Of a stretch of DNA of 37,170 nucleotides, positions 35,629 through 36,084 are shown piece after piece (the first letter of the stretch is position 1; every line of letters begins with the position of its first letter). The notes beneath the pieces are model-generated. The model saw only the letters and a program-made list of their open reading frames with translations. It did not search any database and was not told where the DNA came from. Origin of the DNA: a virus (lineage: Duplodnaviria > Heunggongvirae > Uroviricota > Caudoviricetes); the IMG/VR virus record IMGVR_UViG_2585427743_000015. One strand, 5' to 3'. The position numbers and the translations under genes were made by a program.

Positions 35629-36084
35629 ACCGATACACTCTATTACTAACCAATCATAGCCCACATCATAAAATCGAGATGAGGAGTACAACACCTTTAA
35701 CAAGAAGGTGCAATCACGATAATATGCCGTGCAATTCATCAAAAAAAGATCTATATCAAAGAGATAGAGTTATTATCAGTGCTGCAGACATCAGCATTCG
35801 AGGCAGCAGAAAGACAGTAAATCTAACGAATTTGTCTTTTTCTCAGGATGTTGTCAGATTAAAAAAGATAGAGTAGCGCAGACACCTTTTGGTGGATGGT
35901 AGGAGGAAAAATGAAGTTGAGTGGGAAGATCCCAGAAAAAACTTTGGTTTAACCAAGGCCCTAGTTCAATATGCGAAATGCAGATGAGTTGCAGGAGAGT
36001 TTTGCTTCACCCTTAGAGTTTAAACAGACGTGTACTATCATTATTTCTGCATATCGCCACACCATCGCCACTTTACCGCCATTT

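Follow-up and report, generated by a model that had tools for sequence, protein, structure and literature searches.

A decayed second hok locus, probably an inactive pseudogene, beside the attachment site of leuZ-integrating P88-like prophages of Escherichia coli

Introduction

Decayed hok loci are well known, and one more of them would matter little by itself. The chromosomal loci hokA-E of E. coli K-12, which Pedersen & Gerdes are said to have described in 1999 as inactivated, offer a likeness to the locus considered here, in that deletions, rearrangements or point mutations have led to their decay. The architecture of the R1 hok/sok system and the elements of its leader (tac, metastable hairpin and ucb) have been reviewed (PMC9841398), and the nearest experimentally characterised prophage system, hokW-sokW of the Stx2 prophage Sp5, is a type I toxin-antitoxin (TA) system that aids phage release (Takada et al. 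2021, PMC8621323). In a catalogue of Hok sequences, which found hok to be enriched in prophages, 5.1% of the unique coding sequences were too short and 2.6% carried internal stops, and these were set aside (bioRxiv 10.1101/2025.08.07.668861).

Here we describe a hok relic in a 37,170-nucleotide stretch of DNA (IMG/VR record IMGVR_UViG_2585427743_000015; “the window”), which is a segment of E. coli chromosome with a P88-like (Xuanwuvirus, P2-like) prophage. When compared with the hok/sok locus of P88-like phages, the relic is collinear in the promoter, about 90 nt of leader and codons 24-46 (71-77% identity), and has the same orientation and the same place in the genome, between ogr and attP; it differs in lacking 126 nt, the leader fold and a recognisable 3' fold-back (fbi) element or terminator, and in having a frameshift and a shorter promoter spacer. 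It belongs to the same family as hokW-sokW, but that system is intact and active, whereas the relic has neither a toxin ORF nor an antitoxin gene. Unlike K-12 hokA-E, it was inactivated by loss of an internal stretch, through which the leader became fused to C-terminal codons, and it lies beside attP with a live paralogue 1 kb away.

Results

An intact hok locus serves as the reference copy

The live hok locus follows ogr near the right end of the prophage (Table 1), and its own right flank is made up of a block of about 800 bp, the tRNA operon glyW-cysT-leuZ on the minus strand, and pgsA. Its feature positions were taken from an Rfam alignment and the ORF list. The live leader (34872-35027) matches the Rfam sok/hok-leader family RF01794 at 47.3 bits (E = 1.2e-8), which is below the gathering score of 59, and the C-terminal part of its Hok protein reads HGSLCEIRMSFWGAEFAAFLQCKQ followed by a stop. 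This locus is 94-96% identical to the hok loci of P88-like phages and 83% identical to those of Stx phages, and homology to sequenced P88-like phages ends near 35280, just past the terminator.

The small ORF that separates the live locus from the relic is part of the phage module of about 800 bp and is well conserved (pi 0.015). RefSeq genomes call its product a hypothetical protein, and a Pfam search with it gave no credible family. The product is cysteine-rich with a signal-peptide-like N-terminus, and the middle of the ORF has about 70% DNA identity to hypothetical genes on Xanthomonas plasmids.

Table 1. Coordinates of the hok relic, the live hok locus and neighbouring features in the window
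Feature	Position	Strand	Details
Integrase	1-1002	minus	Pfam Int_N and Phage_integrase
gpD	33283-34524
ogr	34567-34827		followed by the hok locus
Intact hok locus (reference)	34837-35280	+	promoter, leader, ORF, terminator
Live hok promoter	34837-34865	+	TTGCCG, 17-nt spacer, TAGATT
Live hok mRNA start	near 34872	+
Hok ORF	35017-35157	+	46 aa; Pfam HOK_GEF 30.1 bits, cutoff 22
Live hok terminator	35244-35278	+
Small ORF	35347-35628	minus	93 aa from MRCG...; between live hok and relic
hok relic, whole	about 35851-36033	+
hok promoter relic	35851-35874	+	TTGTCA (35851-35856), 12-nt spacer, TAGAGT (35869-35874)
Promoter-proximal and leader relic	35861-35963	+	homologous to 34850-34960, first ~90 nt of hok mRNA
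Deletion joint	35963-35964	+	equivalent of live 34961-35086 (126 nt) absent
Frameshifted remnant of Hok codons 24-46	35963-36030	+	homologous to 35087-35154
Two direct ATCGCCAC repeats, 11 bp apart	36053-36071 (36053, 36064)	+	recur in P' arm
att identity segment	36100-36222	minus	3'ETS-leuZ spacer with terminator and 3' half of tRNA-Leu(UAA)

The relic is homologous to a hok leader and to Hok codons 24-46

An earlier note, made by reading the window alone, had pointed to a second, degenerate copy of the hok-type leader at 35880-36084, and the leader strings that it quoted were located where it had placed them. Smith-Waterman alignment of the two regions (34850-34960 with 35861-35963) gave 111 columns at about 71% identity with a score of 55, compared with 18.4 +/- 2.2 (maximum 29) for 500 dinucleotide-preserving shuffles, none of which reached 55. 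The similarity did not fall to background, then, and the second copy is real; MAFFT pairs the two regions identically. In the Rfam model a hairpin precedes the start codon, and the left arm of this hairpin is where the aligned part of the leader stops. As to the extent of the relic, its right-hand end lies within the stretch first marked out, but it begins about 30 nt further to the left.

A BLAST search of phage genomes (2.3 Gb) with a sister variant of the relic matched nothing but hok loci, all from P88-like (Xuanwuvirus) phages (E = 2e-8). The window's own relic block had no match among the phage genomes of the INPHARED set; BLAST seeding worked only with the sister variant, which shares a 17-mer with hok leaders. 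A contig scan with the 16-mer TTTAACCNAGGCCCTA gave nearly all chance matches from unrelated phyla and one useful match, the Salmonella hok locus L046.

It had also been remarked that no Hok-like ORF follows this leader. This holds for an intact ORF; what does follow is a frameshifted remnant of Hok codons 24-46, which aligns with the live coding sequence at a score of 130, compared with 60.5 +/- 9.4 for shuffled sequences (0 of 1000 reach 130), and at scores of 155-160 in the O157, L143 and L144 variants. The frame is shifted by a 4-nt gap. The window's remnant translates as SSICEMQMSCRRVLLHP and that of O157-type variants as GSLCEIRRSCRRILLHP, each ending in a stop, and variants from other strains still encode GSLCEIR, with the CEIR motif.

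The leader and coding alignments abut at 35963, where nucleotide ~90 of the leader is joined to Hok codon 24, and the relic can therefore be described as a hok locus with one internal deletion of about 126 nt. The same layout was seen by BLAST in one phage record, with 137 nt of relic matching 273 nt of the intact locus in two collinear pieces. Lost with the deletion are the 3' half of the Sok-target hairpin, the hok Shine-Dalgarno sequence (SD), the start codon and codons 1-23, which encode the membrane helix; by analogy with R1 hok/sok, the deleted stretch would also carry sok and the mok start. The collinear and significant homology to a bona fide hok locus identifies the relic as a hok locus by descent.

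The relic has lost the working parts of a hok locus

In the relic, the promoter spacer has suffered a 5-nt deletion, leaving 12 nt as against 17 nt in live hok. All relic variants have spacers of 11-12 nt, one lineage has CAGATT as its -10 hexamer, and no sigma-70 promoter with 16-18 nt spacing lies upstream of the relic leader. A consensus promoter scan called nothing at the relic, although the same scan also misses the live hok promoter.

The leader fold has gone as well. Of 27 leader base pairs, 14-15 are left in fourteen relic variants, compared with all 27 in seven functional leaders from phages and genomes, and the minimum free energies of relic leaders, -16 to -22 kcal/mol, contrast with -37 to -38.6 kcal/mol in functional leaders. 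Set against shuffled sequences, the live leader (-37 kcal/mol) has z = -2.7, the window's relic (-19.9) z = -0.6 and the O157 variant (-13.4) z = +0.6. Rfam RF01794 was absent from the relic at E <= 10, even when 271 nt were searched, and a structured 5' leader with the tac, metastable-hairpin and ucb elements of that family is not present.

Nor did the peptides of the relic match Pfam HOK_GEF (PF01848) at E <= 10, compared with 30.1 bits for live Hok, and the relic has no ORF of about 46-52 aa with an N-terminal membrane helix and a conserved C-terminal region. The small ORFs that cross it are not conserved and are broken at different points in different variants. Insofar as sok and mok can be placed by analogy, the relic is also devoid of the Sok antisense gene and its target, the mok start and the hok SD. 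At the 3' end, the sequence after 36033 was searched for traces of the hok 3' UTR or fbi and gave no significant similarity past the stop-codon region, no terminator-like site was found between 36030 and the tRNA spacer hairpin, and a 3' fold-back element with terminator is missing. From these features we infer that the relic yields neither toxin nor Sok antitoxin; it is probably poorly transcribed or silent, and appears to drift neutrally.

The relic is as variable as its unconstrained neighbours

Sequence diversity was determined from 21 aligned copies of the ogr-to-leuZ region, drawn from E. coli genomes and IMG/VR contigs. In the functional leader, the part homologous to the relic has a pi of 0.014 (4 of 91 columns variable), and the hok coding sequence one of 0.003 (3/141). 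For the relic the value is 0.060, with 26 variable columns out of 110, about four times that of the live leader in the same genomes, alongside 0.069 for the hok 3' UTR (32/123) and 0.064 for the stretch to the right of the relic, the attP arm region (28/120). A relic as variable as its unconstrained neighbours shows the pattern expected of a pseudogene, which argues against the constraint of a regulatory element, with the caveat that high diversity by itself cannot establish that a sequence has no function, the attP arm region being equally diverse.

One fixed deletion in about 12% of complete E. coli genomes

The relic was found in 643 of 5426 complete E. coli genomes (about 12%), with the integrase in 525-599. 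Comparison of the same locus in related genomes, for which 29 copies were assembled from the window, 27 IMG/VR contigs and further E. coli genomes, revealed the identical deletion in 29/29 copies, comprising 14 distinct sequences. As the deletion is common to all copies, the event is older than the diversification of the module, whose variants differ by up to 14%. A search of IMG/VR by the arm motif TATCGCCACNNCATCGCCAC for an intact parent copy beside the same attP arm returned none, all 27 true matches carrying the deletion.

The relic outlasts the phage: in SCEC020023 it stands beside IS1 with no phage left, and in O157:H7 it adjoins IS-riddled tail genes. It carries no RefSeq annotation. 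Our literature search found no description of the relic, nor of a P2-like phage at leuZ, and for STEC, leuZ appears in the literature only in lists of sites occupied by prophages or islands.

The relic is phage DNA next to attP

The att identity segment is a phage-borne copy of about 120 bp of host sequence. Copies of it at attL, beside yecA and outside the window, were seen in ETEC6 and SCEC020023 (L007, 3085-3215; L005, about 895-1020). In K-12, yecA and the leuZ 3' spacer are only about 130 bp apart and the spacer is annotated as the sRNA 3'ETS-leuZ, while in the lysogen ETEC6 yecA is flanked by a second spacer with the leuZ 3' half, after which comes the integrase. On this layout, the prophage is a case of tRNA-targeting integration at tRNA-Leu (leuZ). 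Because the att segment spans 3'ETS-leuZ, the working leuZ has a phage-supplied 3'ETS after integration and the host copy is stranded beside yecA. The 3'ETS-leuZ spacer, a sponge for sRNAs in K-12, is almost invariant (pi 0.011).

Everything from int through the relic lies inside the element as bounded by the leuZ' duplication at attL. The attP order itself can be read in two IMG/VR contigs, the metagenome contig L133 and the 34.9-kb contig L148, as D, ogr, hok, small ORF, relic, leuZ', a P' arm of about 107 bp, and int. These contigs represent either phage DNA in circular or concatemeric form or prophages in tandem, and their arrangement, in which the relic sits inside the element between the phage genes and the core, makes the relic phage DNA. 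The ATCGCCAC motif occurs five times in the window, where 1.4 occurrences would be expected, and two of the five form the pair of direct repeats that starts about 20 bp beyond the 3' end of the relic and so outside it. Related repeats, TATTGTCAC and TATCGCCAC, occur in the P' arm, immediately after the stop codon of int (L133, 10109-10149), and the ATCGCCAC repeats are likely to be integrase arm-type sites of the attP P arm.

Discussion

The relic is very probably a decayed second hok locus, an inactive pseudogene carried by a P88-like phage that integrates at leuZ. As a conjecture on the order of events, ogr-hok would have stood immediately ahead of attP in an ancestral leuZ-targeting P2-like phage, the order still seen in P88-like phages, and the relic would probably be that original hok, which became dispensable or died through the internal deletion; the intact parent beside this attP was not found. 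The functional ogr-hok pair that now lies 1 kb upstream may be an older paralogue that was kept, or may have been gained by mosaic recombination. The relic would then persist because any more deletions in the short non-coding stretch that it occupies, bounded by the small ORF and the attP arm, might damage integration or excision. The live copy and the relic, at ~71% identity, differ too much for a recent tandem duplication. Upstream of the relic, 30 nt (35819-35848) are collinear with the 3' end of ogr (34795-34824), but a match this good arises in 71 of 300 shuffles and is no significant sign of an ogr remnant; tblastn with Ogr likewise gave nothing. Two small RNAs were also considered and set aside: the O157 sRNA Esr41, proposed as lying near leuZ, sits on SpLE1, and the Pas sRNA, described in a preprint, is not relevant to the relic.

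Other readings differ mainly in what they ask of the relic at present. That it is hok by descent and part of attP by present function, as a binding region for IHF or excisionase or as a required spacer, we consider unlikely. Such a role would fit a sequence that is never lost, even in degraded islands, whose 3' end approaches the ATCGCCAC pair recurring in the P' arm to within about 20 bp, and whose distance from the likely crossover, in the tRNA anticodon region, is 190-370 bp; however, the putative arm sites fall outside the relic, no repeated motif is common to it and the P' arm, and its sequence varies freely. Classical attP sites such as those of lambda and P2 have arms of about 150-250 bp in total, and most of the relic is farther from the crossover than such arms extend. 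The retention of the relic in lineages that differ by up to 14% does leave room for a secondary role in spacing or accessory-protein binding. Slightly less probable again is the broader proposal that the relic has been exapted, either as an attP spacer or accessory-factor region or as a residual promoter that transcribes across attP, antisense to the phage-borne 3'ETS-leuZ spacer; an exapted promoter, if there were one, would link recombination or the output of the tRNA-spacer sponge to the state of the phage.

The earlier note had left the choice between a decayed second locus and a conserved regulatory element, and our data favour the former. We find it highly improbable that the relic is a conserved cis-regulatory element or an sRNA derived from the hok leader, whether as a decoy for Sok or as a promoter into attP antisense to the tRNA 3' spacer, even though every leuZ-type prophage sampled has the same architecture and the -35-like and -10-like hexamers can still be recognised. 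The relic is about four times as diverse as the live leader in the same genomes, its leader fold is gone, with folding no better than in shuffled sequences, its spacer has 11-12 nt and some variants carry CAGATT as the -10; moreover, the Sok-complementary region is mostly deleted, the rest is only about 71% identical, too little to pair, and no Rfam family matches. Hardly any credence can be given to the idea that the relic is a chromosomal scar of an earlier leuZ prophage, lying outside the present phage. Its presence beside leuZ in strains that retain no phage or a degraded one (SCEC020023, O157) and its absence from every sequenced INPHARED phage would agree with a scar, yet it lies within the element delimited by the leuZ' duplication at attL, it stands between hok and leuZ' in the attP order hok, relic, leuZ', int of L133 and L148, and it occurs in 27 IMG/VR viral contigs.

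Read as an inactive pseudogene, the relic has a modest bearing on three matters. About 12% of complete E. coli genomes contain this unannotated sequence, which similarity-based predictors of TA systems or small RNAs could miscall. Because it combines a single fixed deletion with free drift, the relic may serve as a neutral marker for leuZ-targeting P2-like integration modules and their remnants, such as that of O157:H7. And with live and dead copies side by side, it illustrates the turnover of hok at the ogr-attP end of P2-like phages.

Additional observations

Within the live hok locus, positions 34963-35016, which run from the Sok-target hairpin to the SD, are hypervariable (pi 0.077, 18 of 54 columns variable) and are flanked by the nearly invariant 5' leader (0.014) and coding sequence (0.003); phage lineages could have diverged here in the specificity of Sok/hok pairing. 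In L142, L146 and L153, homology to the window starts exactly at the hok transcription start (34870) and the sequence upstream of it is unrelated, which implies that mosaic joints occur at the 5' edge of the hok module in several prophages.

The relic region is interrupted by IS1 and IS30/IS3 in SCEC020023, H10407 and O157. In the IMG/VR contig L153 (about 10675-11984), an insertion of about 1.3 kb between window positions 35829 and 35834 separates the upstream region of the small ORF from the relic; its flanks overlap by about 6 nt in window coordinates, and it looks like an IS element.

Just beyond the relic, at 36086-36113, the window has 23 A in a row followed by CCCCCC, where complete E. 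coli genomes have AACAAAATACAAATACAAAAAAACCACCC, of equal length. The closest genome matches to 35300-36170 are 99.3% identical, which is equivalent to the six mismatches of this tract with AACAAAATACAAATACAAAAAAACCACCC, so the tract as written occurs in no complete genome. A comparable “homopolymerised” tract is present in the IMG/VR contig L129. The tract, which as written spoils the stem of the tRNA-operon terminator, is probably an artefact of assembly or polishing.

Finally, in the late-gene region of the prophage (about 24749-25766), the BLAST matches of related contigs are staggered at 132-bp offsets. This pattern indicates a tandem array of units of about 132 bp (44 codons), the number of which varies among relatives.
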